A DNA stretch of 32,000 nt from Candidatus Thorarchaeota archaeon (GCA_048882505.1 JBHLRO010000008.1:90001-122000), one strand, 5' to 3'; counted from the stretch's first letter, positions 80 through 31,781 are shown. Translations and numbers: made by a program. The notes: generated by a model from the sequence alone, not told the origin.

Positions 80-190
80 ATGGTTCAATTTGAGCCCAGT
101 GAAATAAAAATTGAAAATAACATCACTTTCAATCTTCAAGTTATCAAAAAGGTAAAAAATGAGCAAAATAAGGAATATGGTGGAAAATAA
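80..190 (+). CDS. Possible 36-aa small ORF (MVQFEPSEIKIENNITFNLQVIKKVKNEQNKEYGGK), coupled to the next gene
   Basis: ATG at 80, TAA at 188-190 overlapping the ATG at 190 (TAATG). It starts about 32-37 bp after the TATA-like arm at 43-48. No family recognised. Confidence 0.3.
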   Translation: MVQFEPSEIKIENNITFNLQVIKKVKNEQNKEYGGK

Positions 191-2832: not shown

Positions 2833-3563
2833 TTCCTTAATGGATTCGGCCAAATTAATCTAAAAAAATAGCAGTATCTCTAAAAAAACTATATCTAGTA
2901 GTAAAACGGCTTTCTCAAATGAACATCTGCTGTCCGAGACGATTTGCGTCAAATCACTATATTGTGGACCTATCTGGGCCATCCCCGCTATATTCTCCTT
3001 GCAGATCCCAAAATTTACCGCAGTGATCATCTTGCTCTTGATTTCCATCATTAAGGCAAGAGATTGAAATCTGCCAGAGGAGATTCTCACAATTGTTCCT
3101 TAATGGGAAGACCTCTGCTTAACCCGAGTGCCAAAGCTTCTCCTTAGTTTAATCCCAATTAAATTGAATGTTGGCTCTTTATTGGATTTGGGGTATTGAG
3201 GAGGAAATGTTTAGTTTGGAAATACCTGACTGTTTCCAAGATAGATAAATTCCCGAGGGATTTTTCCTGCATCTTATATTATGAAGATACCATGAAAGTT
3301 TTTAACTGGAGACGAAGATGAAATACTCCCCTCTCCGTGTTATCTTTGAAACATGGTTTTCTGAACTATCATTGGAGTAATTTATCACATGAAAAAGGAC
3401 CGAATTAAACTAAATTCACCCGAAGCATTTATGGAAGCAATAAATCGGTATCAAACGAAACAAACTTCCTATTCGACTTCTGGAGAGGATTCATATCCAT
3501 TAACAAGACTATCCATGAAGTGATTCCTTCCGAAAAACATTTCTAAGTCATCACTACCTTGAT

Positions 3564-4013
3564 TTGGAGTTATCTCCACTGTTGGGGACTACATACGGTT
3601 TTATACCGCAAACGCTTTGTGAAGACGGTGATCCATTAGATGTTTTGATTCACTCCAGTGTCGGGAAGTTGCAATTCCCAGGAAGCATAATAACAGCCAA
3701 ACCAGTGGCTGTTTTAAAAATGGAGGACGAAAAGGAGATGACGATAAGATTGTAGCCATTCAGACCGAAGACCCTCACATGGAAGAAAATTAAATCGATC
3801 AATTCCATACCTAAACACCTGTTAAATGAGACAGAAGAGTTCTTCAATACCTACAAACATTTCGAGCGAGGTAAAACGACAAGAGTCGTTGGATGGGAAG
3901 ATAAAAATGTGGCCGAATGTCTTATCATTGAAGCAATTGGTGGATATAGTGGAAAAACCAATACCAATTCTGCTTCTAACGTCAAATTACTGTTAAAAAG
4001 GGACAACAGTTGA
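3564..4013 (+). pseudogene. ppa: Family I inorganic pyrophosphatase remnant with two compensating frameshifts and no recognisable N-terminus
   Basis: Frame at 3564 gives YGFIPQTLCEDGDPLDVLI (PPase D-G-D-P-L-D signature). A -1 shift at the A-run 3730-3733 gives GDDDKIVAIQTEDPH. A +1 shift near 3786-3789 gives IKSINSIPKHLLNETEEFFNTYKHFERGKTTRVVGWEDK, ending TGA 4011-4013. Confidence 0.85.
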
Positions 4014-4091
4014 ACCAGTATTAATCGTTTAATGCATTACAGCGTTATATCCAGTTTGAAATCCGCGGCATTTTTCGTAGGTGAATTTAAA

Positions 4092-4610
4092 ATGGATGTG
4101 GAAACTGCTATCAAAACCCGTCGTGCGATTCGTTTATTTGATGATAAACCGATACCTATTGAGATTGTTACTAAGATTTTGGAGGCTGGCAGACTGGCGC
4201 CCTCTTCCAAAAATTCACAACCAGTTAGAATGATCGTTATTCGAGATAAAAACAAACTTAAGGATGTTAGTAAGATGACCTATTCTGGAGACTTTATTGC
4301 AGATGCGCCAATGGCCATCGCGATCATTACAGAGGATGCGAAACTACCAGATGTTGATGCAGCGCGAGCTGTCCAGAATATGGTGTTAATCGCTTGGAGT
4401 TATGGCATTGGGAGTGTTTGGGTCACCAATTTTTGGGATAAAGGAAAGGAAGTTTTGGCTGTACCTATGATAGGGAGATATAGATTAATAACAGTAATTC
4501 CGTTCGGGTATCCCCATCCAAGTATCGTGAAACCAAAGGGCGCAAGAATTAGACTGGATTTGAAGCAAGTTGTTTTTATGGAAGAGTGGGGAAAACCTTG
4601 GCCCTATTGA
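4092..4610 (+). CDS. Nitroreductase family flavoprotein
   Basis: Motifs AIKTRRAIRLF and AGRLAPSSKNSQP, plus AVQNMVLIAWSYGIGSVW. ATG 4092 follows an AGGTGA RBS-like sequence, preferred over the ORF-track start at 4032. Confidence 0.92.
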   Translation: MDVETAIKTRRAIRLFDDKPIPIEIVTKILEAGRLAPSSKNSQPVRMIVIRDKNKLKDVSKMTYSGDFIADAPMAIAIITEDAKLPDVDAARAVQNMVLIAWSYGIGSVWVTNFWDKGKEVLAVPMIGRYRLITVIPFGYPHPSIVKPKGARIRLDLKQVVFMEEWGKPWPY

Positions 4611-4657
4611 ATTTAGCAACGATTATAGGCAGTATCAAAACCATAGCTTGTCCTTTA

Positions 4658-6040
4658 TCATAAAACTTCAGGCGGACGCAGTATGTATTTCAGATCCATC
4701 ATTGTTTGCGTTTGTTGGCGAGCTTTCTTGATTATACATTCAGCCTTTTCAAAAGCTTCCTTATAAGAAAGTTTCCTTCTTGCAACGCTATCCTTTATCG
4801 CCTGTTGTCCAACCGCCGCAGCCTCACGCGGAAAAACCTCCCATTCATCCATATCTGGTACGATATATTCCTGTGATAATCCCCTATCTTCAGCTGTTTT
4901 GGCTAGTTCATTAGCAGCCGCAATGACCATGTTATCAGTGATAGTGACAGCTTGGACATCTAAGGTTCCTCGAAATATTCCTGGGAAACCGAGACTATTG
5001 TTAACTTGATTAGGAAAATCCGAACGTCCTGTGGCAATAATACAGGCCCCAGCCTGCTTTGCCTCCCAGGGCCAGATCTCTGGAATAGGGTTCGCGCACG
5101 CAAAAACTATCGAATCATCGTTCATTGCTTTAATATGCTCTGGTTTAATAATACCTGGGCCAGGACAACTTGCAGCAATAACAACATCAGTGTCTCTCAT
5201 AGCGGCCAATAAATCACCCTGCCGCCCTTCTCCATTAGAATTTAAGCACATATTCCATTTATATTTCCAATCGTCCTTTACTACTTCGATATCCTTTCGA
5301 GTTGGCGAAAGGATACCTTTTGAATCCACCATTATGATATTCTTTTGTGGAACTCCCGCAGCGATCACCACACGCGCGGCAGCAATATTGGCAGCACCCG
5401 CGCCCACCATAGTTATTAAAACTTCGTCAATCTTCTTATTAACGTACTTTATGGCATTGAATAAAGCAGCCAGTATAATGGCTGCCGTTCCTTGTTGATC
5501 ATCATGCCAAACAGGGATCCTCACATCCTTATCTTCTCTTAACCTATCAAGTATTTCGAAGCACTTCGGTTGGGCAATATCCTCCAGATTGATTCCTCCG
5601 AAAGTGGGTTGAATCCATTTCACCGCTGTTATGATTTCTTCTGTATCGTGACAATCCAAACAGATGGGGAATGCATCTACACCGCCTAAATATTTGAAAA
5701 GTAGAGCTTTTCCTTCCATAACAGGCATACTTGCCTCAGGACCGATATCACCTAATCCCAGTACCCTGGATCCATCACTAACTACGGCAACGTTGTTCCA
5801 TCTGTTTGTAAAAGAATAGGAAGCTTTAGATGTCCCATAATTATCGATTTCATCCGCTATTATCCTACATGCCCTTGCAACCCCCGGAGTATACCAAACG
5901 GCGAAATCTGAAAAGTCATCGATTTTCACTTTGGGAGTAACTTCAATTTTCCCTTTATAAAAAGGATGCCAAGCCTCAGCTTGTCTATTAGGAAGATCAG
6001 CCTTCTTGATTAATTTTTCAACGTCAGCATTCTTGGACAT
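4658..6040 (-). CDS. mae: NAD(P)-dependent malic enzyme (short type, no phosphotransacetylase fusion)
   Basis: Motifs [61 protein letters not shown] and [18 protein letters not shown] at 6040. Confidence 0.95.
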
Positions 6041-6070
6041 TGGAGGAATCCCCAATTCATGGGAAAGAAA

Positions 6071-6099
6071 TTCTGGATCATTTTAACATTGATCCAAAA
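6071..6099. promoter_or_regulatory. Imperfect palindrome TTCTGGATCA-N9-TGATCCAAAA, candidate operator for the malic enzyme gene
   Basis: 9 of 10 arm positions pair. It lies 31-59 bp upstream of the malic enzyme ATG and downstream of a TTTAAAA box on the minus strand (~6125-6131). Confidence 0.45.
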
Positions 6100-6868
6100 T
6101 CGAGGAGCGGGAGAAACCGGTTTGTTTTAAATGTAACGGGAGAATAATGATTACTTTACAATGACCCTACGTCCAAACCGCTTCTTACATTGTAAACAGA
6201 ATGCTTTATTGATAATTAATGGCAAAAAATAGGCAATAGATAACCTAGAACCAAGAAAATTAACTCACCTTGATTTTACTTCTGAAATCCAATCCAGAGA
6301 CATAAATTGACTTCATCATATCCACCATTGGTCTGCAAATTCCAATTCGTCTCAGCCTTGATTTATAAAATACCGGAAGTTTGGGGTGATTAATCTTTGG
6401 AGATGATATAAATCCAAGGATAAGGTCAGATTGTTGATCGAATTATAGCGCATCACCATTCTAAATATGCCGAGTTACTAGATCCTAATTGAAATATAAT
6501 CTCCTAGATACAAGGATTTTCAAAATGAATGATCCTGGAAGAGTTTTTTACCTTTTCTTTTCCTAGTTGATAAAAACTGGACTATATAGTACTCCAAGTC
6601 AGAATAATGGGCATAGTGACGTTTAAATAAGCTCATACTAATATCCAGATTTTGGGGCGCCTACCATGCTTCTGTTCAGAATCACGTGGGCGTTAACTAG
6701 TTTCTCAGATGGACCACATTCACGAAATGATCAATGTATCAATCAGTGTCATTTAAATTTCCAATAGATTCGATATAGGTTTTACCCAAGCCCCATAAAA
6801 CCTTATGAACTATAATCACTTGCTTATCTGTAATTCCTTGAATATATACCCGGGAGAAGAAACCTATT

Positions 6869-8020
6869 TTGGGTGCCCTTGAAAGAAAAATCGAAATTCT
6901 TGGCGAAGCAAGCAAGTTTGATGTCTGTGCATCAATGGCTTCACCAAGAAATGCTTGTAGAAACAACCGAATAGGCAATACGGATAAAATGGGCATTTGT
7001 CATGCTTTCACGCCCGATGGCAGATGTATCAGTCTCTTCAAGGTACTATTGACCAATGAATGCATTTATGATTGTGCATATTGTGTGAATAGCTCCACTG
7101 AGGCAAAAACCAAGGTTATGTTTAAACCTGCCGAATTGGCACGAGCTTTTATGGGATTGTACCTACGAAATTACGTTGAAGGGCTTTTCTTGTCTTCTGG
7201 TATTTGCCGTAACACCACGCACACCACTGAAAAAATGATAGAAGCTCTGAACCTAATTCGTAATAAGTATCTTTTCTACGGATATTTGCACGTCAAAGTT
7301 CTTCCCGGAACAGATAAGGAGTACATCAAGCGGATAATGGAATTAGCTGATCGAGTTAGTCTTAATATCGAGCTCCCAAGCTCATCCCGTCTATCTGAAG
7401 TCTCAAGTATGAAAGATTATCAAAACGACATAATAAGCTGTCAGAAGCACATTTCTAAATTCATTCGCCAGGGATTGGCTCCCGCAGGTCAAACTACTCA
7501 GTTTGTAGTTGGTACGACTGGTGAAACCGATCGTGAAATTATAGAGAGACTCCATTGGGAATATAAAAACCTGGATTTAAAACGTGGTTATTTTTCACAC
7601 TTTACACCAATCAAAGGAACGCCATTAGGTCACAGAGAAATATCCACCAGTCACAGAAAACGGGAGAATTTTCTCTATCGAATAGATTGGTTACTTCGAA
7701 AGTACGACTATAAAGTGGGAGATATTTATTCAATCTTAGACGAAGCAGAAATGATACCATTGACCATCGATCCTAAGGTCTCCCTGGCCGCCACAGATGA
7801 TCTTTTTCCATTAGATGTGAATGAAGCTTCATATGATGAACTTTTACGTGTACCTGGAATTGGAGAAATATCCGCAAGGAGAATCATTAACCTAAGAAAA
7901 GTTAAGAAAGAGATGCACAGCGTTGGAGATTTACAAAGATTAGGAGTCGTAGTAAAAAGAGCAAAACCATTCTTAATCGTTAATGGCTGGCAATACTCAA
8001 AAATCAATGAATTTTGTTGA
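6869..8020 (+). CDS. Putative DNA modification/repair radical SAM protein (TIGR03916/COG4277-like) with C-terminal helix-hairpin-helix
   Basis: GICHAFTPDGRCISLFKVLLTNECIYDCAYC (CxxxCxxC), YVEGLFLSSG, GYLHVK, NIELP, GQTTQFVVG, RENFLYRIDWLLRKY and LDVNEASYDELLRVPGIG. TTG start after a TATATA box. Confidence 0.93.
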   Translation: MGALERKIEILGEASKFDVCASMASPRNACRNNRIGNTDKMGICHAFTPDGRCISLFKVLLTNECIYDCAYCVNSSTEAKTKVMFKPAELARAFMGLYLRNYVEGLFLSSGICRNTTHTTEKMIEALNLIRNKYLFYGYLHVKVLPGTDKEYIKRIMELADRVSLNIELPSSSRLSEVSSMKDYQNDIISCQKHISKFIRQGLAPAGQTTQFVVGTTGETDREIIERLHWEYKNLDLKRGYFSHFTPIKGTPLGHREISTSHRKRENFLYRIDWLLRKYDYKVGDIYSILDEAEMIPLTIDPKVSLAATDDLFPLDVNEASYDELLRVPGIGEISARRIINLRKVKKEMHSVGDLQRLGVVVKRAKPFLIVNGWQYSKINEFC

Positions 8021-8038
8021 AATATTCAATGGGTTGAA

Positions 8039-8638
8039 ATGATGTACGGAAAAATCGAAAGAAAGGAAGTATTAGATTCCCTATCTAGGCATAAGGATAT
8101 TACAGAAGAATTTTTGAATCGAGTGAAATCTATTCCTAAAGTGATTTTAGAGAATGTTGGTACCAAAATTGCCAAACGGGCTGTGGCGATGAGTCGAGAA
8201 GTGGATGCTGATCTACATTCTCATAAAGCCTTTCTACGGCCATCTATTTCAAAGCATGGAATTTTATATGCGAAAACGAATGAGATGGATCATCGGAATG
8301 AGGAAGAACTCTTGCTTTTTTTCAAAAAGAGATTTCCCAAGTTTATTATCGTATTAGAGTCACAGAGAGGAACATTTTGGATCACAACATCATCACGGGT
8401 CTTATCAACTGACCAATCGTTATGTGAAGTTCTAAGGGAACTTGAAGACTCTCTTCCTGAGGTTCCATTTTTACGTGACTTGAGTGATAAAAATTACCAG
8501 TTATTGTGGGAAAACTTCGCACAATCCCAGATCATTGGAGGACGTAGACCATCAAAACGTATGAAAGCTTTAACAAAAAAATGGGATAATACTGTGCCAA
8601 AAGAAAGAACATTCGCGTCCTTAGATGCCTTTTTTTAA
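8039..8638 (+). CDS. DUF4130 (TIGR03915-like) partner of the radical SAM protein
   Basis: V.RE....H..KAFLR-like, FFKKRFP and YQLLWENF.QSQ.I..RR-like motifs. It lies 18 bp after the radical SAM gene, the usual gene pairing. Confidence 0.75.
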   Translation: MMYGKIERKEVLDSLSRHKDITEEFLNRVKSIPKVILENVGTKIAKRAVAMSREVDADLHSHKAFLRPSISKHGILYAKTNEMDHRNEEELLLFFKKRFPKFIIVLESQRGTFWITTSSRVLSTDQSLCEVLRELEDSLPEVPFLRDLSDKNYQLLWENFAQSQIIGGRRPSKRMKALTKKWDNTVPKERTFASLDAFF

Positions 8639-8729
8639 CGAAAAATTTCGTTCTTCATTATCTACCTTTCAGTACTATGATCTTCAACAGGTTTTTAGAT
8701 AACCTATTTCGATGCGGGAATATTTTGGC

Positions 8730-10142
8730 CTAAACTGTTAAGAGTTCCATAAACGCCGTAACAGGGAGCGATTCCAACATCTGTTGATTTTGAAACAAAG
8801 ATATGATTTTTTGAACCTTGGCAGCAACGTATTTAGTAAGGAGATTGTTTTTGCACTTTGTTTCCAACATTGGACCCGCCTCAGATCGTCGTCTGCGATG
8901 GCCCAATGGATATTCGACCATGATATTATCAGTCTGGGATCCGTCCTCAAAGATAATTTGAATCGAGTTCGTTATGGCACGTTTATCTGGTGCATGGTAA
9001 TCCTTGGTGAAATTTGGATTTTCGTACACCTTCATCTTCTCTCTTAGTTCATCAATCAGTGGATTGGCCGCCATTTCGTCCTCATAGTCTTCATAAACGA
9101 TGTTACCTTTCATAAGAGCGATGGCAACCATGTATTGGAGACAATGGTCGCGAGCCGCAGGATTTTGAAGGGGGCCTTTCTTGTCAATTATCCTAATGGC
9201 GGCTTCATGAGTGGCAATTTCTATCCGGTCAATGGTATGCAACCGGTTCTTTACTATTGGATGAAGCCTGATTGCCGCTTCGACGGCGGATTGTCCATGA
9301 AATTCAGCCGGGTAACCAACCTTGAAGAGTACATTCTCCATGACATAAGAACCGTAAGGCATTTGGAATTTGAATTTTTGACTGTTCCAAATTCTATCGT
9401 AATACCCCCAAGTTGGAGCAGAAAGACAGGTTTTATATCCCATTTCCCCACGAAAAGATTGAAGAGCTAGGAATACCCCTCGGCTCGTAGCATCTCCAGC
9501 AGCCCAACTTTTTCGTGTTCCAGTATTGGGGGCGTGTCTATATGTCCGAATTGCTCCTCCATCAACCCAAACCTGGGATATGGCATTTATTATCTGTTCT
9601 TTAGTGCAACCTAGCATACCCGCTGCGACCGCAGCGCTTGCTAGTTTGACCAAAATAACATGATCGATCCCCTTCTGATTGAAGCTGTTTTCTAAGGCCA
9701 TAACGCCTTGAACTTCATATGCTTTAATCATCCATGTAAGGATGTCATACATTCTCATCGGTTCCTCCCCTCGTCTAACCTTTTTTCGTGAAAGATAATC
9801 CCCGACTGAAAGAATGGCTCCTAAATTATCAGAGGGGTGCCCCCATTCCGCAGCTAGCCATGTATCGTTATAATCCAACCAACGAATTAGAACACCAATA
9901 TTAAAGGCTGCTGTTAATGGGTCTAAGACGTACGAAGTCCCAGGAACACGCACTCCGTCAGGAACAATGGTTCCAGGAACGATAGGTCCCAACATCTTAG
10001 TACATTCAGGAAAACGAAGGGCAAGTACGCCACAGCCTATGGAGTCCATTAAACACAATCGTGCGGTATTGTACGCTTCTTTCGAAGTGGGTTCATAGTC
10101 CAAAATATAATCTGCAATATCCACGAGTTCAGGATCTATCAA
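8730..10142 (-). CDS. prpD: 2-methylcitrate dehydratase
   Basis: IRWLDYNDTWLAAEWGHPSDN, YRHAPNTGTRKSWAAGDA, ENVLFKVGYPAEFHGQ, ARDHCLQYM and VEYPLGHRRRR. Confidence 0.96.
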   Translation of the reverse strand: MIDPELVDIADYILDYEPTSKEAYNTARLCLMDSIGCGVLALRFPECTKMLGPIVPGTIVPDGVRVPGTSYVLDPLTAAFNIGVLIRWLDYNDTWLAAEWGHPSDNLGAILSVGDYLSRKKVRRGEEPMRMYDILTWMIKAYEVQGVMALENSFNQKGIDHVILVKLASAAVAAGMLGCTKEQIINAISQVWVDGGAIRTYRHAPNTGTRKSWAAGDATSRGVFLALQSFRGEMGYKTCLSAPTWGYYDRIWNSQKFKFQMPYGSYVMENVLFKVGYPAEFHGQSAVEAAIRLHPIVKNRLHTIDRIEIATHEAAIRIIDKKGPLQNPAARDHCLQYMVAIALMKGNIVYEDYEDEMAANPLIDELREKMKVYENPNFTKDYHAPDKRAITNSIQIIFEDGSQTDNIMVEYPLGHRRRRSEAGPMLETKCKNNLLTKYVAAKVQKIISLFQNQQMLESLPVTAFMELLTV

Positions 10143-10158
10143 AAATTAACCTCCAAAA

Positions 10159-11295
10159 TCATCTTTTTTCTATCGGAATATAGTTCCTATCAATGGGACC
10201 AATATACTCAGCCGTGGGTCTGATAAGCTTATTGTTGGCCCTTTGTTCAAGTATATGTGCAGCCCAGCCACTAAAGCGACTTACTACAAAGATAGGAGTA
10301 AAGAGAGGGATATCGATGTTTGCCATATAATAAGCTGTCGAGGTATAGAAATCCAGGTTCGGATACATCCCCTTTTCTTCCATTACTTCCTCGATGCGAG
10401 TTGCAATCTCAAAGAGGGTTTTTAGTTTTGGACGTGCATTTGAAAGGTTCTCAGCAATCTCCTTGATGATTTTCGAACGCGGATCATGGCCTGCATAAAC
10501 CGCATGTCCGAATCCAAATATTAATTCTTTATTCGCCAGTTTTTCTCGGACACCGCGCTCTGCATCGTCTGCATCTGTGAATTGCAACATAAATTTAATC
10601 GCAGCTTCATTAGCGCCGCCGTTTAATGGTCCTGAAAGAGTTCCTATTGCAGTAGCAACACACGAGTAATAATCGGCTAGCGTTGAAGCACATACTCGTA
10701 ACGCAAATGTCGAAGCGGCAAATTCATGTTCAGCATACAGAATCAGAGATTTATCTAGCATCTCTCGATCCAGGTGATCTGGAGAAGCTCCGGTCAGCAT
10801 TTGCAGTAGGTACCCAGCGATAGTATCCTCATTAGTATCAAAGAAGTTTTGTTTATCTCGTATCCCCCGTCTTGTCTCCCAGTAACCAATCAAGCTGGGT
10901 AATATACCCAAGATTCTAATTGCTTGGGGCACCCCTTCATGGTCCTTTTCTGGTTCAAGTGCTCCCAAAGTGGAAATTCCAGTTCTTAAAACAGACATAG
11001 GATGGGTTGTCGGAGGAAGATTATCAAGTAGATCCATTATTTGCTTTGGTATCACACGAGCATCGACTATATGCGATTTCCAATCTCTTAGCTGCTTTTG
11101 TGTCGGCAACCCACCATGTACGAGTAAATAAGAGACTTCTTCGAAATTGCTATTGCGCGCAAGAATCTCGATCGGGTATCCTCGATACGATAATCCAATA
11201 CCTTCCTCTCCAACTGGGCAGATTTTGGTATAACCCACATTTATTCCCCGCAATCCTTCATAATTTCCGACGACTTCTAATTTCCTTTCGGGCAT
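10159..11295 (-). CDS. prpC: 2-methylcitrate synthase-like protein (citrate synthase family) with two atypical active-site residues
   Basis: LSYRGY, LYAEHEF, GFGHAVY, YPNLDF and WAAHILEQR.NNKLIRP. It sits between prpB and prpD. GPLN replaces GPLH and HEFA replaces HEFN. Confidence 0.88.
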   Translation of the reverse strand: MPERKLEVVGNYEGLRGINVGYTKICPVGEEGIGLSYRGYPIEILARNSNFEEVSYLLVHGGLPTQKQLRDWKSHIVDARVIPKQIMDLLDNLPPTTHPMSVLRTGISTLGALEPEKDHEGVPQAIRILGILPSLIGYWETRRGIRDKQNFFDTNEDTIAGYLLQMLTGASPDHLDREMLDKSLILYAEHEFAASTFALRVCASTLADYYSCVATAIGTLSGPLNGGANEAAIKFMLQFTDADDAERGVREKLANKELIFGFGHAVYAGHDPRSKIIKEIAENLSNARPKLKTLFEIATRIEEVMEEKGMYPNLDFYTSTAYYMANIDIPLFTPIFVVSRFSGWAAHILEQRANNKLIRPTAEYIGPIDRNYIPIEKR

Positions 11296-12186
11296 TTACT
11301 GATCCCCTCCTTGAAGTTTATCCAAAATTCCTTCCCAGCGATAATAGTCTAAGAGCTCGTATAATTCACTTCTAGTTTGCATTCTGTCAATCAGTGTCAT
11401 TTGAGTCCCTTCCCGTCTAACAGTGATATATACATTTTCAGCAGCTTTGTTCATTGCGCGAAAGGCGGTTAATGGGTAAAGTACAAAAGAAACTCCAACT
11501 GAACCAAGTTCTTCAACGGAAAAGAGAGGGGTTTTCCCGAACTCTGTAATGTTTGCAAGTATCGGAATTGAGAACACCTCAGTGACTGCCCTATATTCTT
11601 CCAGAGTCGTAAATGCTTCGGGAAAGATTGCATCGGCACCGGCTTCAATATATCTTCCGATCCTTTTTATGGCTCCGTCTAATCCTTCATTGGCCAAGGC
11701 ATCTGTACGAGCCATTACCATGAAATCTTTATCAGTTTTTGCATCAACAGCGGCGATAATTCTATGGCACATTTCTTCAGTCGTTACAATTTTCTTGCGT
11801 GGTCTATGACCGCAGCGTTTTTGGGCCTCTTGGTCTTCCAAGTGAACACCTGCCACTCCGACTTTCTCTAAAGTTTTAATAGTACGTGAAATGGAAAATG
11901 CAGTTGCTCCAAATCCAGTGTCGATATCCACTAGCAGCGGAAGGTCCACAACGTCCGTTATCCGTCGTGCATCTTCAGCTACGTTGTCTAGAGTAGTTAT
12001 TCCAAGATCTGGAAGGCCATAAGAAGCATTTGCTACGCCCGCGCCTGATAAATAGATCGCACGATAATTGTGCCTTTGGGCCATCATAGCCATTAACGCA
12101 TTAATTGTACCAATAACCTGAAGAGGTTTTTCCACCTCAAGAGCTTCTTTAAGTCGTCTACCTGGCGATTTTTTTTGAGAATTCAA
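11296..12186 (-). CDS. prpB: 2-methylisocitrate lyase
   Basis: [52 protein letters not shown] and [14 protein letters not shown] start at 12186 follows GAGGTG (ORF-track start 12231). The stop directly abuts the prpC ATG. Confidence 0.95.
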
Positions 12187-12263
12187 ATTAAAACACCTCT
12201 TTATTAATCTTATAATGGTGTGGCCTTTCAATTTGGGAGAAAGATCTTCAGTCAGGATAAATG

Positions 12264-12851
12264 TTATCTTCCTTTAACAATCTCGTCTGGAACATTCTGA
12301 ATAAAGTTAACGTACCGAGCGCATATAAAGAGAAAATCAGAAAGCCTATTGACATACTGTATCAAAAGTGAATTAAAATCAGTGATTAAAGACAGCTTGA
12401 CTAATTCGCTTTCCACTCGCCGACAGACAGTACGAGCCAAGTGCAGAAAAGCTGAAACCTCTGTTCCACCTGGTAGTAAAAAATTTTGAAGGGGAGGAAG
12501 TTTTTCAGAAAGCTCGTCGATTTTATTCTCTAAATGTTCGACAGCATTCTTCTCCAGTAGAGAGAAGGTCGAACTCGATCTACCTGATGCTCTTGGATTC
12601 GTTATACCTTTTAAATTAAGGGATCCTACCTCTGCTGCCATATGGAACAGATTCACTTGTATTTCCTCCAAACCCAAAGCGGTTGAATCTGATAAAAAAC
12701 TCCTGGCAACGCCAATAAATGCCGAAAGCTCATCCAGAGCCCCAAGTGCGATTATTCTAGGATCGGTTTTTGAAACTCTTTCCCCTGTAATGAGGGAGGT
12801 GAATCCTTTATCTCCCCTCCGTGTATATATTCTGCCAGGCATAGTTATCAC
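12264..12851 (-). CDS. pduO: PduO/MMAB-type ATP:cob(I)alamin adenosyltransferase
   Basis: [43 protein letters not shown] and [13 protein letters not shown]. Start is either GTG 12851 (GTGA overlap) or ATG 12842. Confidence 0.93.
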
Positions 12852-13822
12852 AAGCCAAGTTTTTTGTTTAAATGGTTAAAGAAATCTGTTAGATCGATAT
12901 TGCCGCCGGATAGGATTACACCCACTCTCTTATCCTTAAAATCATATTCCTCTGGATTTCCTTTCAGTTGAAATAACCCCGCCAAGGGAACTGCTCCCGA
13001 AGGTTCTATGATTATCTTCATTCTCTCCCATAGGTAGCGCATGGCGTTTACGATGCCTTCTTCTGTCACTCTAACAATTCCATTAACGTTTTGTTTTATT
13101 ATTTTAAAGGTAATAACCCCTAAAGAGGTTCTTAAGCCATCCGCGATGGTGTTAGGATCAATAGATGGAAAGATTCTCCTTCCATCCTGAAACGAGCGAA
13201 ATGCGTCATCAGCGTTTAGCGGCTCTATACCTATTACTGTTATATCCTCGTTTAATCCTTTTGCGGCAATCGAAGTTCCACTAAGCAGACCGCCTCCCCC
13301 CACTGGTGCGACGATTAGGTCGAGATCGCTCACCTCCTTTAAAAGCTCGTATGCTGCTGTTCCTGCACCATGAATAATCCGATAATCGTTGTATGGATGA
13401 ACAAGCGTATAATTGAATTCCTGCATTAGCTCTTCAACTTTATCCTTCCGGCTTGTGGGGTCATTTCCACAAAAAACGATGTCCGCCCCGTATCCTCGGG
13501 TAGCGGCCTTCTTAACCTTGGGAGCATTTTCGGGCATAACAATGGTAGCTTTTATCTGAAGTTCTCTCGATGCGAGCGCTACTGCTTGTGCATGGTTGCC
13601 TGAGGAGTGAGTAATGACCCCACCCTCTTTTTCCGATGATGAAAGCTGGCTTAGAGCATTCAGGGCACCTCTGAATTTAAATGCTCCAACTCTCTGGAAA
13701 TTTTCACATTTAAAGTATACTTTCATATCTAACTTTCTATTTAAGGTACGAGAAGTTAATACAGGAGTTTTATTGACATAATCCTTGATTCTGGAATATG
13801 CAGCACTGATTTTAGACAGCAT
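12848..13822 (-). CDS. PLP-dependent threonine/serine dehydratase (serine racemase-like, fold type II, no regulatory domain)
   Basis: KCENFQRVGAFKFRGA (PLP lysine), HSSGNHAQA, HPY, VGGGGLLSG, TIADGL, EPSGA and ILSGGN. ATG at 13822. Confidence 0.92.
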   Translation of the reverse strand: MLSKISAAYSRIKDYVNKTPVLTSRTLNRKLDMKVYFKCENFQRVGAFKFRGALNALSQLSSSEKEGGVITHSSGNHAQAVALASRELQIKATIVMPENAPKVKKAATRGYGADIVFCGNDPTSRKDKVEELMQEFNYTLVHPYNDYRIIHGAGTAAYELLKEVSDLDLIVAPVGGGGLLSGTSIAAKGLNEDITVIGIEPLNADDAFRSFQDGRRIFPSIDPNTIADGLRTSLGVITFKIIKQNVNGIVRVTEEGIVNAMRYLWERMKIIIEPSGAVPLAGLFQLKGNPEEYDFKDKRVGVILSGGNIDLTDFFNHLNKKLGL

Positions 13823-21370: not shown

Positions 21371-22699
21371 CTATTTTCGATTTTTTATCCAGGACAGTCC
21401 GAGAAGAGTAGCAATCACAAAGAAAAAAATCAAACCGATCGCATTAATTCCATCGAGTTTTGGATTTATAACGATTTTAACGAGCCACATGTCTCTGTTA
21501 GTATCACCAAATGAACTAGTAAGACCCGCTAGGACATAACCGTTATCTGGCGCTTGAACGAGTGCACTGGCCCAGTCAGGAGCTAATCCCCCAAAAGCCT
21601 GGCTAAATTGCTCCATGCAATTCCTATCGGTCTTCAATAACCATAAATCCCCACTGCCGACCCCAAATGACGCAGTAAGGCCAGCCAGAGCAAAACCATC
21701 ATCATCATCCTGCACGATAGAAGTCGCCCAATCGGATCCTGTTCCGCCATAAGTCTGGCTACATTGCATAATCCCATTCGCATCAGTCCTTACTAGCCAC
21801 ATGTCGCCGCCGCCGACCCCAAATGACCCTGAAATACCCGTTAGTGCAAAGCCTCCCTCTCTAGTCTGGATTAAGGCATGCGCTTCATCCGCACCATCTC
21901 CTCCGTAACTCTTATTCCATTGAGCAACTCCGTTTTCGTCGGTTTTCACCAACCACATATCACTCCCTCTATCAAATGAAACGTTATACCCCGCGATCGC
22001 AAAGCTGCCATCATTGGTCTGGATTATGGCTTTAGCCCAATCATTGGAGTTAATATTATTGTATTGCTTTCCTCCGAAAGTCTGGATCCATTCTTCATTT
22101 CCGTCTTTATCGGTTTTTACCAAAAACATATCAAAATCGCCCGCGCCATATGAGGTGGTGTATCCCGCTATAGCAAACCCGCCATCCAAGGTTTGGATCA
22201 GGGAGGAAGCCCCCTCAGCACCCCATCTTCCATAGGTTTGATCCCACTGAAGTACTCCATCAGAATCAGTCTTCACTAGCCACACGTCTCCCCCACCAAC
22301 CCCAAATGACCGGGTTAGGCCCGCTAGTGCAAAACCTCCGTCATCTGTCTGGACGAGTGCACTCGCCCAATCAGAATCGAATCCGCCATAAGTCCGACTC
22401 CATTCCTCGACACCATTCGCATCGGTCTTAACCAACCACATTTCACTTCCATACGCACCTAATGACCCCGTGGAACCTGCAAGGGCAAAACCTCCATCTG
22501 TTGTCGAAACGAGGTCAGGAGCTTCATCCCCGCTGGTTCCTCCATAGGTCCGATGCCATTGCACCATCGATTCGTTTTGGGTGCCTTCACCTACGGCAAT
22601 TAGTTCATTGGGATTCTGGGATTCAAACAACAGGCCCATCATGAATGGAATGGCTATTAATAAAAAAAGAGTATATCTAGAGAGTTTCGTGATTGTCAC
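21371..22699 (-). CDS. Secreted, C-terminally anchored protein with seven ~52-aa repeats (7-bladed beta-propeller)
   Basis: N-terminal hydrophobic signal; seven copies of W..TYGG...D.A..L.QT.DGGFALAG.T.SFG.G..DMWLVKTD..G; C-terminal transmembrane helix followed by KNRK. Confidence 0.85.
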   Translation of the reverse strand: MTITKLSRYTLFLLIAIPFMMGLLFESQNPNELIAVGEGTQNESMVQWHRTYGGTSGDEAPDLVSTTDGGFALAGSTGSLGAYGSEMWLVKTDANGVEEWSRTYGGFDSDWASALVQTDDGGFALAGLTRSFGVGGGDVWLVKTDSDGVLQWDQTYGRWGAEGASSLIQTLDGGFAIAGYTTSYGAGDFDMFLVKTDKDGNEEWIQTFGGKQYNNINSNDWAKAIIQTNDGSFAIAGYNVSFDRGSDMWLVKTDENGVAQWNKSYGGDGADEAHALIQTREGGFALTGISGSFGVGGGDMWLVRTDANGIMQCSQTYGGTGSDWATSIVQDDDDGFALAGLTASFGVGSGDLWLLKTDRNCMEQFSQAFGGLAPDWASALVQAPDNGYVLAGLTSSFGDTNRDMWLVKIVINPKLDGINAIGLIFFFVIATLLGLSWIKNRK

Positions 22700-26611: not shown

Positions 26612-29044
26612 TTAATCGCTTGGATAAATATTTCCAGAGTTTTGCTCTACCTTCTCAATAAAAAAGCACCATTTTTGGATTGTTGGTTGTGAAATGTTGT
26701 ATACTGGAAGGGCTTTAAACCGTAAATGCCATGGGATACCTTCATTCGTTAGTTTTTCGGCAGAAAATTCATTAACGATATTTTCAGCTTTTTGATACAA
26801 TATGTTCTGGAATTTTTCTCCCACTCCTGATTCTTTTAACTTTGGATGCTGAATGACATTAAGAGTTCGTACATCAACATTAAAATTCCCGAATAGCTCC
26901 TGTGCCTGTGAATTGTGGGATAAAACCTTACCTAGATTATCTACATATATGATCCCTTGATTAATGTTTTCTCTTAGAATGTTCAATTCTTGTTGGACTT
27001 GACGAAAGGATTCTTCGATTATTGACACCGCAGTTATGTCGGTTACCGTGACAACCGCGCCCACTACCTCACTATCAGCGAGGAGGGGTACCGAGGTGAC
27101 CTTTGATTTTACCTCTTTCCCCTTCCTCGTAAGATATGTTATGTCCATAAATGTTTCACTTCTATTTCCCCTCAACCTATCTTTAACCAATTCCTTGATA
27201 TGTTCGTGATCACGCTCTGGGAAAAAGCTATAAAGACTTCGACCTATTAATTCCCTACTAGATGTATATTCCAGGATCTTCGCCATGCGTGTGTTCGCCA
27301 TTGTCACTCTCTCTCTGCGATCCCAAACATAAACCCCCTCCGGGATGCTTGTGAGAATCTCCTCCAAAAACTCTTTAGTTGTTTGCAATTCTGAGGCTCT
27401 TGCTTTTTCCTCTGTAATGTCTCTGATAAATCCAAAAGTCTCTTGAATGTCTCCGCTAACACTCTGAATCGCCGCTCCCGTTACTAGCGTATGAATTAAT
27501 TTTCCAGATCTATGAAGGAAGGCTAATTCATAGGATTCTGGGAGTTCTTCTCCAGTCTCTCTACCATGGGTAGTTTCTTTTAACTTTTTGGCACTTTCTT
27601 GCGTTAAGAAATCAAGAACCGGGACTCCAATGATTTCGTGCGGAGAATATCCAAGCATCTTGGCCATACTTTCGTTTATGTAAGTAGTATTCTCATCAGG
27701 TACATCGCTCACCCAAACCCCAATGGGAGTCCTTTCGATGAGTACACGGAATCTTTGTGCGATAGCATTTCTCTCTGCTTCCGCAAAAACCCAGGCAGAG
27801 ATGTCTCGCATAACAAATGCTACTTGATATCCCGCTGAATGTTCGATTGTAAAGCCTCGTGATTCTATTATATGCTTAGAGTTATCGGCCCGGTTTGTAA
27901 TCGAATACATCAGTTCAGAATGACGTTCTGAGGATGAAGGATCGAGTATGTTTAGGAAACGCTCATGAAGCCAGTTTATATCTTTTGAATGAATTTCTCC
28001 TTGGCTTGGATCAAACTTACCAGGATTTAATTTAAGCATAATTTCCGAAACTGGTTTGCCTACTGTTTCTGCTTTTGATAGGCCACTTATTTGCGTGAAG
28101 GCCGAATTAACATCTAAAATCACTTCGTCCTTTGTCATCAAGACGATTCCTGTATCTATTAGTCCCTCAAATATTTTTCGATGTTTCTCTTCTGAATCAA
28201 TTAGAGCTTGTTGAGTCTGTATTGTGTGCGTGATATCAGTTGCCAATGCTTGAATTGCTCGAACTTCACCGGTCTTTTTGCCGTAGATTGGCCGTGCCGT
28301 TAGATCGAGGTGGATGATTTTGCCCTCTTTGGTAATCCCACGGAGGATGGTTCCAATGGTCAAAGATAGTCCGTCTTTGATTTTTTTTATCAAATCTGCC
28401 CATATAGGGCGATCTTCATCCATCGATAACTCTTTAAACGATAAATTCCCCATTTCCTCTCTATCATATCCGAATTTCAAAAAGAATTCAACATTTGCCT
28501 CCTTTAAAGTTCCCTGGGTATCAAAAATCAAAATTAAACCCGTTGAATTCTCGAATAGATCCCGATATCGGGCTTCAGATTTTTTAAGCTCGTTCTGCAA
28601 TCTATATCTGTCAATCGTCTGACGAATAGAAGTCGCCATAAGGGAATAATAACCTGGTTGAACCCGTTTGATGAAATACCCTGAAGCTCCCTGTAATAAT
28701 GCCTGTGATGCGATTTCCTCTGATCCTTGGCCGGTTATGAATATAACGGGGATATCAATTCTCAGTTCTTCCTGAAGTTTTCTTAGAAAATTAATTCCAT
28801 CAGCTGGCAAGACCATTTCATTAATCGTCAAGGTACCAGGCAATTTGTGATCGCATAGAATGCAGTCGAATGTCTCTACCTCAAGTTTTTCTAAGGCAGA
28901 TTTTGCTGAATATACTGTGGTTATTTTAAAACTAGGGTCTACATCACCAAATTTTTTCACCAGTAGCCCAAGGAACCACTCATCGTCATCTATGGCTAGT
29001 ATTTTCCTCTCGGATATCCCTGATGACATATTAGTTCCAATCAT
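26612..29044 (-). CDS. Response regulator receiver domain plus five PAS domains, with no kinase or DNA-binding output
   Basis: REC motifs ILAIDDD, DCILCD, FITGQG and YFIK. PAS starts at YRDLFEN, HRKIFEG, FRVLIER, LEEILTS and LRENINQG. ATG at 29044 (or 29029). Confidence 0.9.
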   Translation of the reverse strand: MIGTNMSSGISERKILAIDDDEWFLGLLVKKFGDVDPSFKITTVYSAKSALEKLEVETFDCILCDHKLPGTLTINEMVLPADGINFLRKLQEELRIDIPVIFITGQGSEEIASQALLQGASGYFIKRVQPGYYSLMATSIRQTIDRYRLQNELKKSEARYRDLFENSTGLILIFDTQGTLKEANVEFFLKFGYDREEMGNLSFKELSMDEDRPIWADLIKKIKDGLSLTIGTILRGITKEGKIIHLDLTARPIYGKKTGEVRAIQALATDITHTIQTQQALIDSEEKHRKIFEGLIDTGIVLMTKDEVILDVNSAFTQISGLSKAETVGKPVSEIMLKLNPGKFDPSQGEIHSKDINWLHERFLNILDPSSSERHSELMYSITNRADNSKHIIESRGFTIEHSAGYQVAFVMRDISAWVFAEAERNAIAQRFRVLIERTPIGVWVSDVPDENTTYINESMAKMLGYSPHEIIGVPVLDFLTQESAKKLKETTHGRETGEELPESYELAFLHRSGKLIHTLVTGAAIQSVSGDIQETFGFIRDITEEKARASELQTTKEFLEEILTSIPEGVYVWDRRERVTMANTRMAKILEYTSSRELIGRSLYSFFPERDHEHIKELVKDRLRGNRSETFMDITYLTRKGKEVKSKVTSVPLLADSEVVGAVVTVTDITAVSIIEESFRQVQQELNILRENINQGIIYVDNLGKVLSHNSQAQELFGNFNVDVRTLNVIQHPKLKESGVGEKFQNILYQKAENIVNEFSAEKLTNEGIPWHLRFKALPVYNISQPTIQKWCFFIEKVEQNSGNIYPSD

Positions 29045-29132
29045 GCTTATCTCACAATGTCCCGAGGCTCTACCCATTCCTGGGGCTTATATGTAAGGTT
29101 TTTTGTTTGAATTCGCCATGAGAGTTTGGGTC

Positions 29133-29381
29133 TCAGACTTTGTATACCTTATCGCCCTTTCTAACTCGTTCTGGAACCTTTAATCCAACCAAGGTTCCAG
29201 CAGAGACAGAATCCACGTCAGCACGATCTATCTGTAGACTTTCAACAACCATCTCAAAATCTGTGGTAGCTCCCCTAATAGAAAGCTTATCACCGATTTT
29301 TACCGATCCGTTTGTAACATTCAAGACAGCTACGCCAACCTTTGTGAAGTAGTTATCTATTTGTCCTATTTCTTCGTCCAT
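29133..29381 (-). CDS. Small translation elongation factor domain-2-like (beta-barrel) protein
   Basis: IGQIDNYFTKVGVAV ... VKIGDKLSIRG ... VESLQID ... VGLKVPERVRKGDKVYKV. ATG 29381 follows AGGTGA; TTTATAAA box at 29408-29415. Confidence 0.8.
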   Translation of the reverse strand: MDEEIGQIDNYFTKVGVAVLNVTNGSVKIGDKLSIRGATTDFEMVVESLQIDRADVDSVSAGTLVGLKVPERVRKGDKVYKV

Positions 29382-29602
29382 ACTTATCACCTAACATTTG
29401 GGCGGGTTTTATAAACACATTCTTATTATCTAGTGGCCGGAAAAGTTGTTTAAGGGCAGATTATTTGATTCGATCCGCCTTCGTCTGGTATAAAGATTAC
29501 TGGAAGTATGGATTCAAAAACCTTTTGAACCATCCAATACTTCCACTTGTATGTTCACTGTTTAATATATTTCCGTTAATGCACCTGTAATGGCATGGAG
29601 GC

Positions 29603-30649
29603 TTAAAGAAGTCTCTTCCACATCCTACGGATTTTTTCTTTCAAGGAGGATCCAGAAGATTTAGAAATTTCTTGAAACGTATCTAATAGATCTTCAGTAG
29701 ACAATGGATCGATAAGTTGTGACACGTAATCCAAATATTCCTTGACAAGAAGCTTTCTAAGCCCTGGTTTAATATCTTCAAGCACGTGGTTAGGAAGAGA
29801 CAGAAACGAATTCAGGAATTCGTGTTGATTGCAAAGCTGAGAAAACGAGGTGTCAAGAACGAGGAAGTAAACCTCACCATAAACAAATTCAAGACTGGAT
29901 AATATATGGGTACCAAATACCAAGCGTTTGGGTCTTGCTCCACCGAACAATGTCTGTACAAAATCAATTATCACCGATAGATACCCTGCTAGTATTACAT
30001 CCCTTTCGACATTCCATGAAATGGGCATTTCTCCGCCTCCGAACATAGACATAAGGGCCCATCCCTCGGGGGTAATTTGGTCGATCAGGCCCTTCTGTTT
30101 TCGCAAATTCCAGTGTAACAACAACAATTCTTCAAAAGAAAGCATTGAAAAATTGGAAGACCCTCTACCGCAGATTTGGCTAATCATCTCCCGATGTCCA
30201 GGATTAAGGTCAATGATAATGTTTTGGAAAATTGATTCTATTATTTTGGCTTCATTCTCTTGTTTCACGTTTGAAACTGCATGGGCGAACAAGATGGAGG
30301 CTTGACCTACAAGAACCGCCTTGATTTGTTCTGCCATTGTTTCAGGCAAGCCCTCCTTTGCAGAAATCAGCTTTAAAGTAATTGCTGCATCCGAACAAAC
30401 GAAAAAGAATTTATTCTGCAATGACACAATAAAGACTTCAGATGCCTTTAGGCCTGCATATTTTTTGACTTCAAATTCTATTGAAGCCACTGAATTTTCT
30501 CCGAAAATTTCTTGAGCGATATTGCCCAGTCCCCTTAAGAAATTGACCACAAAAGTTTTAAATTCATAGTCAGGGCTGCCAAATGACCACTCGATCTTAT
30601 TATCAAATACAAATAGTGCCCAATTTTCATCAGCGCGAATAGACTCCAC
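29603..30649 (-). CDS. Hypothetical protein with two predicted longin-like domains (paralog of the upstream gene)
   Basis: Two units with a beta-beta-alpha-beta-beta-beta-alpha pattern: FVVNFLRGLGNIAQEIFG..VASIEF and LAGYLSVIIDFVQTLFG..KRLVF. Aligns by eye with 30657-31781. Confidence 0.65.
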   Translation of the reverse strand: MESIRADENWALFVFDNKIEWSFGSPDYEFKTFVVNFLRGLGNIAQEIFGENSVASIEFEVKKYAGLKASEVFIVSLQNKFFFVCSDAAITLKLISAKEGLPETMAEQIKAVLVGQASILFAHAVSNVKQENEAKIIESIFQNIIIDLNPGHREMISQICGRGSSNFSMLSFEELLLLHWNLRKQKGLIDQITPEGWALMSMFGGGEMPISWNVERDVILAGYLSVIIDFVQTLFGGARPKRLVFGTHILSSLEFVYGEVYFLVLDTSFSQLCNQHEFLNSFLSLPNHVLEDIKPGLRKLLVKEYLDYVSQLIDPLSTEDLLDTFQEISKSSGSSLKEKIRRMWKRLL

Positions 30650-30656
30650 TTCCGGA

Positions 30657-31781
30657 TTAAAATCTTCCGAAAATACGCGAAAGTATTGTACGAACTTCTC
30701 CTTTCTTTCTTGGTTGATATCTTTTTTTGATCAGATCGTTAATTTCCTGTGTCTCAAGTATCTCTGATTCATATCCAATGATTTCATCGATTAGACGTTT
30801 ATGCAGAGAACTATAGAGGTCTTCTTGTACATGCCGGCTCATGCTAAAGTAGCGATCATGGAACTCATCGATCTGCATAAGGGAATGGACAGGAGTATCG
30901 ATAGCAAGGAAATATTCGTCCTTTCCATTCACAAAAAACAACCGATTGATATTATTGGTCCCAAACGTAATCTGTCCAGGACCACCTGTTTCAAATATCG
31001 ATTTTATGAAAGCAATTATGATTCCTAGATATCCCGCTAATACTACTGGATCACGATCTCTCACATTATAATCTAAATGGATTTCACCCCCAGAAAGATG
31101 ACTAACAAGGGCCCACCCCGATGATGACAATGGTTTTGTGAGCTCGGGCTGTTTTCTCAGATAGTAGTGTAAGTATAAGAGATGATCAAGTGGTAGCATG
31201 GAGAAATTACTTGAATTCTCAGAAACGATCTTGGGAATTTCCTCCTGATAGTTTGGATCGATGTCCAAGATTATGTCCTGCCATAATTTGGTGAGATAAT
31301 CTCTTCTATCAGCTGTCTCGGCTTCTGTTATACATTGCCCGTATATCATTGCAGCTTGGCCCACCAAAACTGCCGAGATAGCATCTTGGATATCTGTTGG
31401 GATTCCCCCTTTACCTTCTATCAATTTAAGTGTAATTTGAGGATCTGATAAAATTAAAAAGAATCTATTCATTAGACTAACAATGAATATTTCTGATGAC
31501 TGATGATAGGAACGTTTCTTGAGTTCAAATTCAATAGATGCGACTCCGTGTTGCCCGAACAATTCCTGACCGATTTGGCCAAGACCTGTTAAAAAATTGA
31601 CAACAAAGGTTTGAAACTCCTCATCAGGATCCCCAAAATGCCATTTTACCTCTTTCTCGATAACGAACAAACAGAAAAATTCATCTACTTTCATAAAAAG
31701 CGGATCCACTAAGCTAGATAAGGAGTCAGACTCCAATAATAATCTTTTTATTTTTTTTGCTAAGAGATAAAACCTCATCAA
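30657..31781 (-). CDS. Hypothetical protein with two predicted longin-like domains; true start probably 31709 (GTG) or 31694 (ATG)
   Basis: Shares TFVVNFL.GLG.I.QE.FG, VASIEFE.KK, ITLKLI, AVLVGQA, SSNFSML, LRKQ, GWAL.S, GGE and LAGYL with the downstream gene. A start at 31781 would leave only 25 bp to the divergent gene. Confidence 0.65.
   Translation of the reverse strand: MMRFYLLAKKIKRLLLESDSLSSLVDPLFMKVDEFFCLFVIEKEVKWHFGDPDEEFQTFVVNFLTGLGQIGQELFGQHGVASIEFELKKRSYHQSSEIFIVSLMNRFFLILSDPQITLKLIEGKGGIPTDIQDAISAVLVGQAAMIYGQCITEAETADRRDYLTKLWQDIILDIDPNYQEEIPKIVSENSSNFSMLPLDHLLYLHYYLRKQPELTKPLSSSGWALVSHLSGGEIHLDYNVRDRDPVVLAGYLGIIIAFIKSIFETGGPGQITFGTNNINRLFFVNGKDEYFLAIDTPVHSLMQIDEFHDRYFSMSRHVQEDLYSSLHKRLIDEIIGYESEILETQEINDLIKKRYQPRKKGEVRTILSRIFGRF

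Follow-up and report, generated by a model that had tools for sequence, protein, structure and literature searches.

Longin and roadblock platforms, together with small GTPases, are central to membrane traffic and nutrient signaling in eukaryotes, and Asgard archaea possess many single-domain versions of these modules, some of them fused to GTPases. What, then, is encoded by two adjacent genes, A and B, in a 32,000-nt stretch of an Asgard genome placed in the Hodarchaeales (GCA_048882505.1 JBHLRO010000008.1:90001-122000; this whole stretch is called the window below)? An original prediction, made from the DNA sequence, took them for paralogous multi-longin proteins that form a heterodimeric, Mon1-Ccz1-like regulator of small GTPases. 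Our main new result is that relatives of A and B carry the same module fused to intact or degenerate GTPase domains.

Results

Only 7 nt separate the stop codon of A from the GTG start of B, and both genes lie on the minus strand (Table 1). Their products align at 42% identity over 347 residues (BLASTP E value, 3e-96), a similarity far above chance level, in agreement with the earlier description of two co-oriented neighbors that match along most of their length. The longest open reading frame (ORF) of A begins with a TTG codon (30657-31781, 374 aa), but the real start is most likely the ATG at 31694, since all 15 of 15 orthologs of A start at this position, the family profile match opens there, residues 1 to 26 of the long form have a predicted local distance difference test score (pLDDT) below 50 in the AlphaFold2 (AF2) model, and an adenine-rich, TATA-like stretch (31744-31758) falls within the N-terminal extension. 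The TTG is located 87 nt upstream of the orthologs' start (window 31695-31781, minus strand), and automatic annotation may include the spurious 29 residues.

AF2 models built on alignments of 67 family members reached a pLDDT of 88.2 and a predicted template modeling score of 0.83 for B and a pLDDT of 86.3 for A. The two share one layout. It opens with a beta-beta-alpha-beta-beta-beta unit in the longin order, with two helices behind it and none in front, and continues with three more helices, a second beta-beta-alpha-beta-beta-beta unit, and a helical tail. In B, the first unit consists of strands 11-15 and 18-23, helix 28-49, and strands 55-59, 71-77, and 81-86, followed by helices; residues 1 to 10 are coil, with no helix ahead of strand 1. 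The second unit, preceded by helix 172-182, consists of strands 198-202 and 210-212, helix 217-234, and strands 240-245, 250-257, and 261-265, and only helices follow after residue ~265. The corresponding elements of A (long-ORF numbering) are strands 37-41 and 44-49, helix 54-75, strands 80-85, 97-103, and 107-112, and helix 114-123 in domain 1, and strands 224-228 and 234-238, helix 245-263, and strands 268-274, 278-285, and 290-294, then helices, in domain 2. The hallmark of the longin/roadblock superfamily, a five-stranded antiparallel sheet in beta-beta-alpha-beta-beta-beta order packed on helices, is thus seen, and the two units per protein that had been read from the sequence (hairpin, helix, three strands, helices) appear twice in each model. 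The motifs quoted for them were also found: the first helix carries NFL.GLG.I.QE.FG, and the second carries LAGYL..II.F....F. Sequence evidence for a duplication is weak (N-terminal versus C-terminal half, hhalign E value of 0.0024 and probability of 12%), so that it is the fold that argues for an internal repeat.

Residues invariant in the family (B numbering) are W21, G24, L113, G115, A117, L170, H179, R183, G205, F235, F245, and G246; those of domain 1 are W21, G24, (P26), and F37. A large conserved helical linker, from L113 to R183, holds the invariant motifs VLVGQA, H179, and R183, and the middle helical region (residues ~100 to 190) gave generic helical-bundle matches only.

Structure comparisons uphold the assignment to the longin/roadblock fold. 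In whole-chain Foldseek searches with both models, subunits of the tri-longin Rab guanine nucleotide exchange factors (GEFs) ranked first: the top match was 7q3e_B of the CPLANE complex (E values of 7.6e-5 with B and 2e-4 with A), and below it came BLOC-3, Mon1-Ccz1, and Fuzzy-Inturned (including 8zwc_A and 9rs7_A). These matches have E values of 7.6e-5 to 1e-2 and probabilities of up to 0.92, yet their template modeling (TM) scores are ~0.2, with root mean square deviations (rmsd) of 16 to 22 Å, and tandem or multi-PAS proteins are interleaved in the same lists at similar E values. An independent comparison of domain 1 with 48,161 Protein Data Bank (PDB) chains by VIA-align gave the highest score, 6.3, to an Odinarchaeota roadblock protein (rmsd of 2.9 Å over 71 residues), followed by dynein LC7 (6.2), LAMTOR4/5 (5.5), Mon1/Ccz1 subunits (5.2), and BLOC-3 (5.0). 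Searched as a single domain with Foldseek, domain 2 of A matched MP1/p14, LAMTOR, and MglB. In the ESM Atlas, a search by shape returned the family's own cluster (TM score, 0.58) and otherwise weak rows only, among them bacterial proteins bearing Robl_LC7 (0.37) and GAP1-N1 (0.33); in the search by features, all scores were below 0.9, and an Asgard "Roadblock/LAMTOR2" cluster, 22% of it with Fuz_longin_1, was not used as evidence.

Searches of Pfam and NCBIfam with A and B returned no relevant family, and a sequence profile search of the PDB found nothing but a chance match to DnaI (E value, 0.15). Weak Pfam matches to LANC_like in nine members (best E value, 9.5e-5) were taken as noise from the helical linker.

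The connection to GTPases comes from relatives in which the module is part of a longer protein. Four of them (P0104, P0123, P0128, and P0133) end in a domain of the Ras/Rab type (Pfam Ras E values, 1.3e-25, 1.1e-32, 1.6e-35, and 4.5e-28); the P-loop GD..(T/V)GK(T/S) and the SAK/SAV motif are present in all four and NKxD is present in three, and two of these proteins are named "Rab family GTPase" by NCBI. In P0134 and P0140, an Arf-like domain lies upstream of the module (Pfam Arf E values, 5.7e-39 and 5.7e-15). In nine proteins of ~550 aa, which form a clade, the C-terminal domain is homologous to the intact GTPases (hhalign probability, 96.9%; E value, 1.4e-10; 174 columns) and lacks the P-loop lysine, DxxG, and NKxD; we read this degenerate domain as a pseudo-GTPase. 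In the family tree, this clade is sister to the E/F paralogs of the window's genome, and fused forms are scattered over several parts of the tree. Most copies found in the two genomes of a sister taxonomic family likewise sit in open frames of 550 to 590 aa. When a module and a domain are joined in some lineages and stand apart in others, this is a classical sign of joint function. Because relatives are fused to Rab- or Arf-like GTPases, A and B probably work with small GTPases.

A separate 511-aa protein on another contig of the window's genome (contig C11, locus L018, 526-2061) also ends in a Rab-type GTPase (GDGAVGKT, DLAGQ, NKAD, SAK); its N-terminal half looks as though it contains one longin/roadblock-like unit, and the protein falls outside the A/B family.

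The protein family is restricted to the Hodarchaeales and is found essentially nowhere else in Asgard archaea. A word-indexed search returned 73 relatives, the named ones almost all from Hodarchaeales, Hodarchaeota, or Heimdallarchaeota, and an exhaustive profile search of 1.8 billion representative proteins returned 72 relatives only. When 400 Asgard genomes were scanned, the protein family turned up in 21 of 21 other genomes of the window's taxonomic family, in both genomes of the sister family within the order, and in 1 of the 377 remaining genomes, as a weak match broken by stop codons.

Six copies are present in the window's genome, the A-B tandem and four on other contigs. In a maximum-likelihood tree with support from the Shimodaira-Hasegawa-like approximate likelihood ratio test (SH-aLRT), A, B, the C9 type, and the C20 type form one clade (100% support), with the divergent E/F pair outside it. 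Since the tree resolves well-supported ortholog groups (99% for clade A and 100% for clade B), the A/B duplication is old within the order. The tandem itself is conserved, with gaps of 7 to 66 nt, in eight genomes of the scan and two further NCBI assemblies. Paralogs of the E and F types, which occupy separate contigs in the window's genome, adjoin in two other genomes (G065:C1:1768879-1770946 and G075:C317:3206-5895). Paralog pairing may be a general habit of this double-longin family.

A second feature shared by the pair is an amphipathic C-terminal helix that resembles membrane-targeting helices such as that of MinD. Among 16 of 16 orthologs of A, the last 22 residues have a net charge of +4 to +8 and a conserved [LF]-x-R-[IL]-F motif; the hydrophobic moment is 0.5 to 0.86 in most orthologs and 0.33 to 0.45 in four (background mean, 0.43). 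The B clade keeps its charge less strictly (-2 to +6), and B and the C9/C20 types share a related terminal helix, R-x-W-x-(K/R)-L-L. To judge from these residues, A and B are probably membrane associated through the basic helix.

Table 1. Features of the A/B locus, in nucleotide positions of the window
Feature	Position	Strand	Details
Gene A, double longin/roadblock-domain protein	30657..31694	-	Ortholog group A; 345 aa from ATG 31694
A, first longin-type domain	31407..31685	-	Residues ~33-125 (long-ORF numbering)
A, second longin/roadblock-type domain	30792..31130	-	Residues ~218-330 (long-ORF numbering)
A, C-terminal basic amphipathic helix	30660..30701	-	Ends in ILSRIFGRF; candidate membrane-targeting sequence
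Gene B, paralog of A	29603..30649	-	Ortholog group B; 348 aa, GTG start
B, first longin-type domain	30350..30631	-	Residues ~7-100
B, second longin/roadblock-type domain	29744..30076	-	Residues ~192-302
B, C-terminal amphipathic helix	29606..29644	-	EKIRRMWKRLL; hydrophobic moment 0.89
85-aa protein like EF-Tu domain 2 (beta-barrel)	29133..29390	-	Pfam GTP_EFTU_D2, E 2e-6, just under the curated cutoff
Receiver and four PAS domains, without output domain	26612..29077	-	Pfam

The neighborhood formed by A, B, an 85-aa protein, and a protein with receiver (REC) and PAS domains is conserved. In two other Hodarchaeales assemblies, the 85-aa gene again comes right after B. At least 11 of the 18 genomes having an ortholog of the REC-PAS gene place it 0.5 to 7 kb downstream of the family gene(s) and on their strand, and it is also downstream at loci L012 and L014; these orthologs are only ~49% identical. 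Elsewhere in the window's genome, which has 13 receiver-domain genes, a REC-GAF-PAS-HATPase gene is followed after 52 nt, on the same strand, by the C9 paralog (L008 7842-9746 and 9799-10845), and two small GTPase genes lie 4 to 6 kb to either side of that paralog. In another assembly, the REC neighbor of the C9-type paralog is not conserved; a small GTPase gene ~5 kb from a C9-type paralog recurs, not adjacent, in one other assembly. The neighborhoods of the four other paralogs revealed no common partner gene.

A cluster on contig C6 of the same genome (C6:45000-60000, locus L028, ORFs 2409-13298) interleaves four small GTPase genes with kinase and receiver genes. Their order is a Ras-like GTPase, an Arf-like GTPase with an N-terminal extension, a GAF-PAS histidine kinase, a single receiver, a Rag/Gtr-like GTPase of 414 aa, a second Ras-like GTPase, a receiver protein, and a REC-PAS histidine kinase. 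Of all GTPases in this genome, the second Ras-like one is most closely related to the GTPase to which the A/B family is fused elsewhere; the small GTPase genes nearest to the fused domains are at C6:54186-54704, C1:505011-505514, and C2:155945-156469.

Three further observations concern other genes of the window. The 85-aa stand-alone protein, which resembles domain 2 of EF-Tu/SelB, has its own TTTATAAA box upstream. An 880-aa ORF (190-2832, plus strand) has no Pfam or NCBIfam match, and a 442-aa ORF (21371-22699, minus strand) has a weak match to SBBP beta-propeller lipoproteins (E value, 1e-7), far under the cutoff.

Discussion

We favor, with moderate confidence, a reading in which A and B make up a platform to which one or more small GTPases of the Ras superfamily would bind, and which would govern their nucleotide state or their location at a membrane. 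The two old paralogous subunits, each with two longin/roadblock-type domains and a helical linker between them, would pair through their sheet-and-helix domains, most likely A with B, to form a surface presented to the GTPase, of the kind offered by MglB, Ragulator, TRAPP, and Mon1-Ccz1. This surface would set the nucleotide state or location of the GTPase, and anchoring of the complex to the membrane would fall to the basic, amphipathic helix at the C terminus, most pronounced in A. We infer that the unfused proteins bind GTPases, heterodimerize, attach to membranes, and receive input from the REC-PAS neighbor; the candidate activities are those of an exchange factor, a GTPase-activating protein (GAP), or a pure scaffold.

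The platform model draws support from the tri-longin GEF subunits that head the Foldseek lists, the domain fusions of relatives, the conservation of the family and of its A-B tandem, the small GTPases encoded in the genome, and the C-terminal helix. Several observations weigh against it. The fusions show that the module of the relatives works with a GTPase in cis, and this is not the same as binding by free A/B in trans. When 71 members were compared with Pfam at E values of up to 1, no match to Longin, Robl_LC7, Sedlin, the Fuz/Intu longin, or a similar family appeared. No catalytic signature was recognized, and domain 1 has no invariant arginine; longin GAPs are marked by a GP motif where strand 2 begins and by an arginine finger that the longin domain supplies (PMC12290439), a signature that was looked for in the family and was not at the expected place. 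None of the five family loci in the window's genome adjoins a GTPase gene, the nearest being those 4 to 6 kb from the C9 paralog. In favor of the model, at least 37 small GTPases are encoded in the genome as possible partners; as had been noted at the outset, none was found in the window, and the nearest one found with a Rab-like query is ~3.6 kb past the window's left edge, ~33 kb from the pair. In other Asgard archaea, small GTPase genes likewise stand apart from their putative regulators (PMC10933270).

The platform is probably heteromeric. It is possible, if rather unlikely, that A and B instead act as homodimers or as monomers, each with its own partners, and that the tandem is only what an old duplication left behind. 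Homodimers are common among archaeal and bacterial roadblock proteins, such as MglB and the Asgard roadblocks (PMC10933270), four more paralogs stand alone on other contigs, and the two domains of a chain could pair internally. These points are countered by a tandem that is older than the split of the A and B ortholog groups (at least 99% support) and persists with its short gaps in at least 10 assemblies, by the adjacency of the divergent E/F paralogs in G065, and by the eukaryotic platforms of this fold, which are typically heterodimers of paralogs. Prediction of the A+B complex from ortholog alignments speaks neither for nor against binding (median score of 0.31 against a mark of 0.32; controls, 0.00). 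We consider it improbable that the module is no GTPase regulator at all and serves as an adaptor in phosphorelay-type signaling, with the REC-PAS neighbor or another non-GTPase protein as its partner. The REC-PAS ortholog does stay near in at least 11 genomes despite its low identity, a receiver gene at two of five loci would be expected by chance less than 1% of the time (a rough estimate, given 13 such genes), and bacterial proteins combining a receiver with Robl_LC7 are among the Atlas shape neighbors. However, the genomes all belong to one family-level group, so that common descent rather than selection may account for the shared synteny, the REC neighbor of the C9 type is not kept in another assembly, and the GTPase fusions point directly to GTPases. 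The two ideas are in any case compatible, as illustrated by the contig C6 cluster and by Myxococcus, where RomR, a receiver protein, works with roadblock proteins and the GTPase MglA (PMC9481161); the context of A and B recalls this RomR/MglB/MglA system. A connection among phosphorelay proteins, longin/roadblock modules, and small GTPases is plausible because of the REC-PAS neighbor, the REC neighbor of C9, and the C6 cluster of GTPase, kinase, and receiver genes.

The observation behind the original prediction is confirmed and its interpretation is supported in part, the specific link to Mon1-Ccz1 being an improbable element. We hold it doubtful that A and B are true archaeal homologs, or forerunners, of the tri-longin Rab GEFs, forming a heterodimer through the first longin domain (LD1) and acting as a GEF for a Rab-like GTPase. 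Such kinship would fit the best full-length Foldseek matches of two independently predicted models, which are subunits of Mon1-Ccz1, Fuzzy-Inturned, and HPS1-HPS4, as well as the paralogous nature of the pair, the fusion of some relatives to Rab-type GTPases, and the longin order of domain 1, with no N-terminal helix and two C-terminal helices. Yet each chain has two longin-type domains rather than three, the C-terminal 80 residues being helical; the matches superpose poorly (TM score of ~0.2, rmsd above 16 Å) and share their E-value range with multi-PAS proteins; domain by domain, roadblock proteins score at least as high as Mon1/Ccz1; no member of the family matches Mon1, CCZ1, Fuz, or Intu in Pfam; and confinement to one order is as compatible with an invention of the lineage as with an ancestral protein. 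Because of the two domains and the lack of a sequence-model match, A and B are not members of the tri-longin family, although they may still work alike. It is correspondingly a long shot that the A/B, C9/C20, and E/F pairs are prokaryotic survivors related to the ancestor of the tri-longin Rab GEFs. If that kinship were true, activation of a Rab-like GTPase by a multi-longin paralog heterodimer at a membrane would predate eukaryotes, control by a REC-PAS phosphorelay would be possible, and the fused forms would identify the cognate GTPase.

Under the platform model, the A/B family is a compact, order-specific, two-domain version of such modules, kept in conserved pairs, with natural fusions that point to its GTPase partners. 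Together with the conserved receiver-PAS neighbor, it makes the matching of regulators to Asgard GTPases directly testable with a handful of recombinant proteins. Even as a lineage-specific invention, an unannotated family with about six genes per genome joins the inventory of Hodarchaeales GTPase signaling. Published work on Asgard archaea describes single longin/roadblock domains, GTPase fusions, and FLCN-type longins (PMC10933270, PMC12290439, 10.1101/2024.02.28.582541, and 10.64898/2026.10.28.762692). In the literature searched, whose coverage is incomplete and gives no proof of novelty, we found no description of the A/B family or of an Asgard tri-longin, Mon1-like, or multi-longin paralog pair, nor any account of a prokaryotic relative of Mon1-Ccz1, Fuzzy-Inturned, or BLOC-3, the exchange factors built from paired multi-longin paralogs.

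Comparison with known systems

Among known systems, Mon1-Ccz1, Fuzzy-Inturned (CPLANE), and HPS1-HPS4 (BLOC-3) resemble A and B in having several longin-type domains per chain, paralogous paired subunits, and a link to Rab-type GTPases, which for A/B runs through the fusions in relatives. They differ in having three consecutive domains in 400 to 600 aa, compared with two in ~345 aa, in an arrangement that does not superpose on A/B and without a sequence-model match; the large conserved linker, the C-terminal amphipathic helix, and the Hodarchaeales-only range are traits of A/B. The roadblock/LC7 platforms (MglB, LAMTOR2-5/Ragulator, the Rag C-terminal domains, and the Asgard roadblocks; PDB 7f8f, 7f8m, and 9jue) are also close, but they have an N-terminal helix before the core, whereas domain 1 of A/B lacks it and follows the longin order. 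A and B, in addition, have two such domains per chain and no Pfam Robl_LC7 match, and in most fusions of their family the GTPase follows the module instead of preceding it.

The partners in FLCN-FNIP, C9orf72-SMCR8, and NPRL2-NPRL3 are paralogs that begin with a longin domain, form heterodimers, and have Rag or Arf GTPases as their targets, and longins of the FLCN/SMCR8 type have already been described in Heimdallarchaeia (PMC12290439). In contrast to these longin GAPs, A and B have W..G.P after strand 2 (18-23 in B) rather than GP before it, no invariant arginine in residues 1 to 100 of B, the sole invariant one (R183) being in the linker, and a second domain that is longin/roadblock-like rather than DENN-like, with no Pfam match to Folliculin or SMCR8. 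Finally, compared with the GTPase-fused Asgard longin/roadblock proteins (Rag-like and LGR; PMC10933270), A and B themselves are free of a GTPase domain, whereas relatives within their own family possess one.

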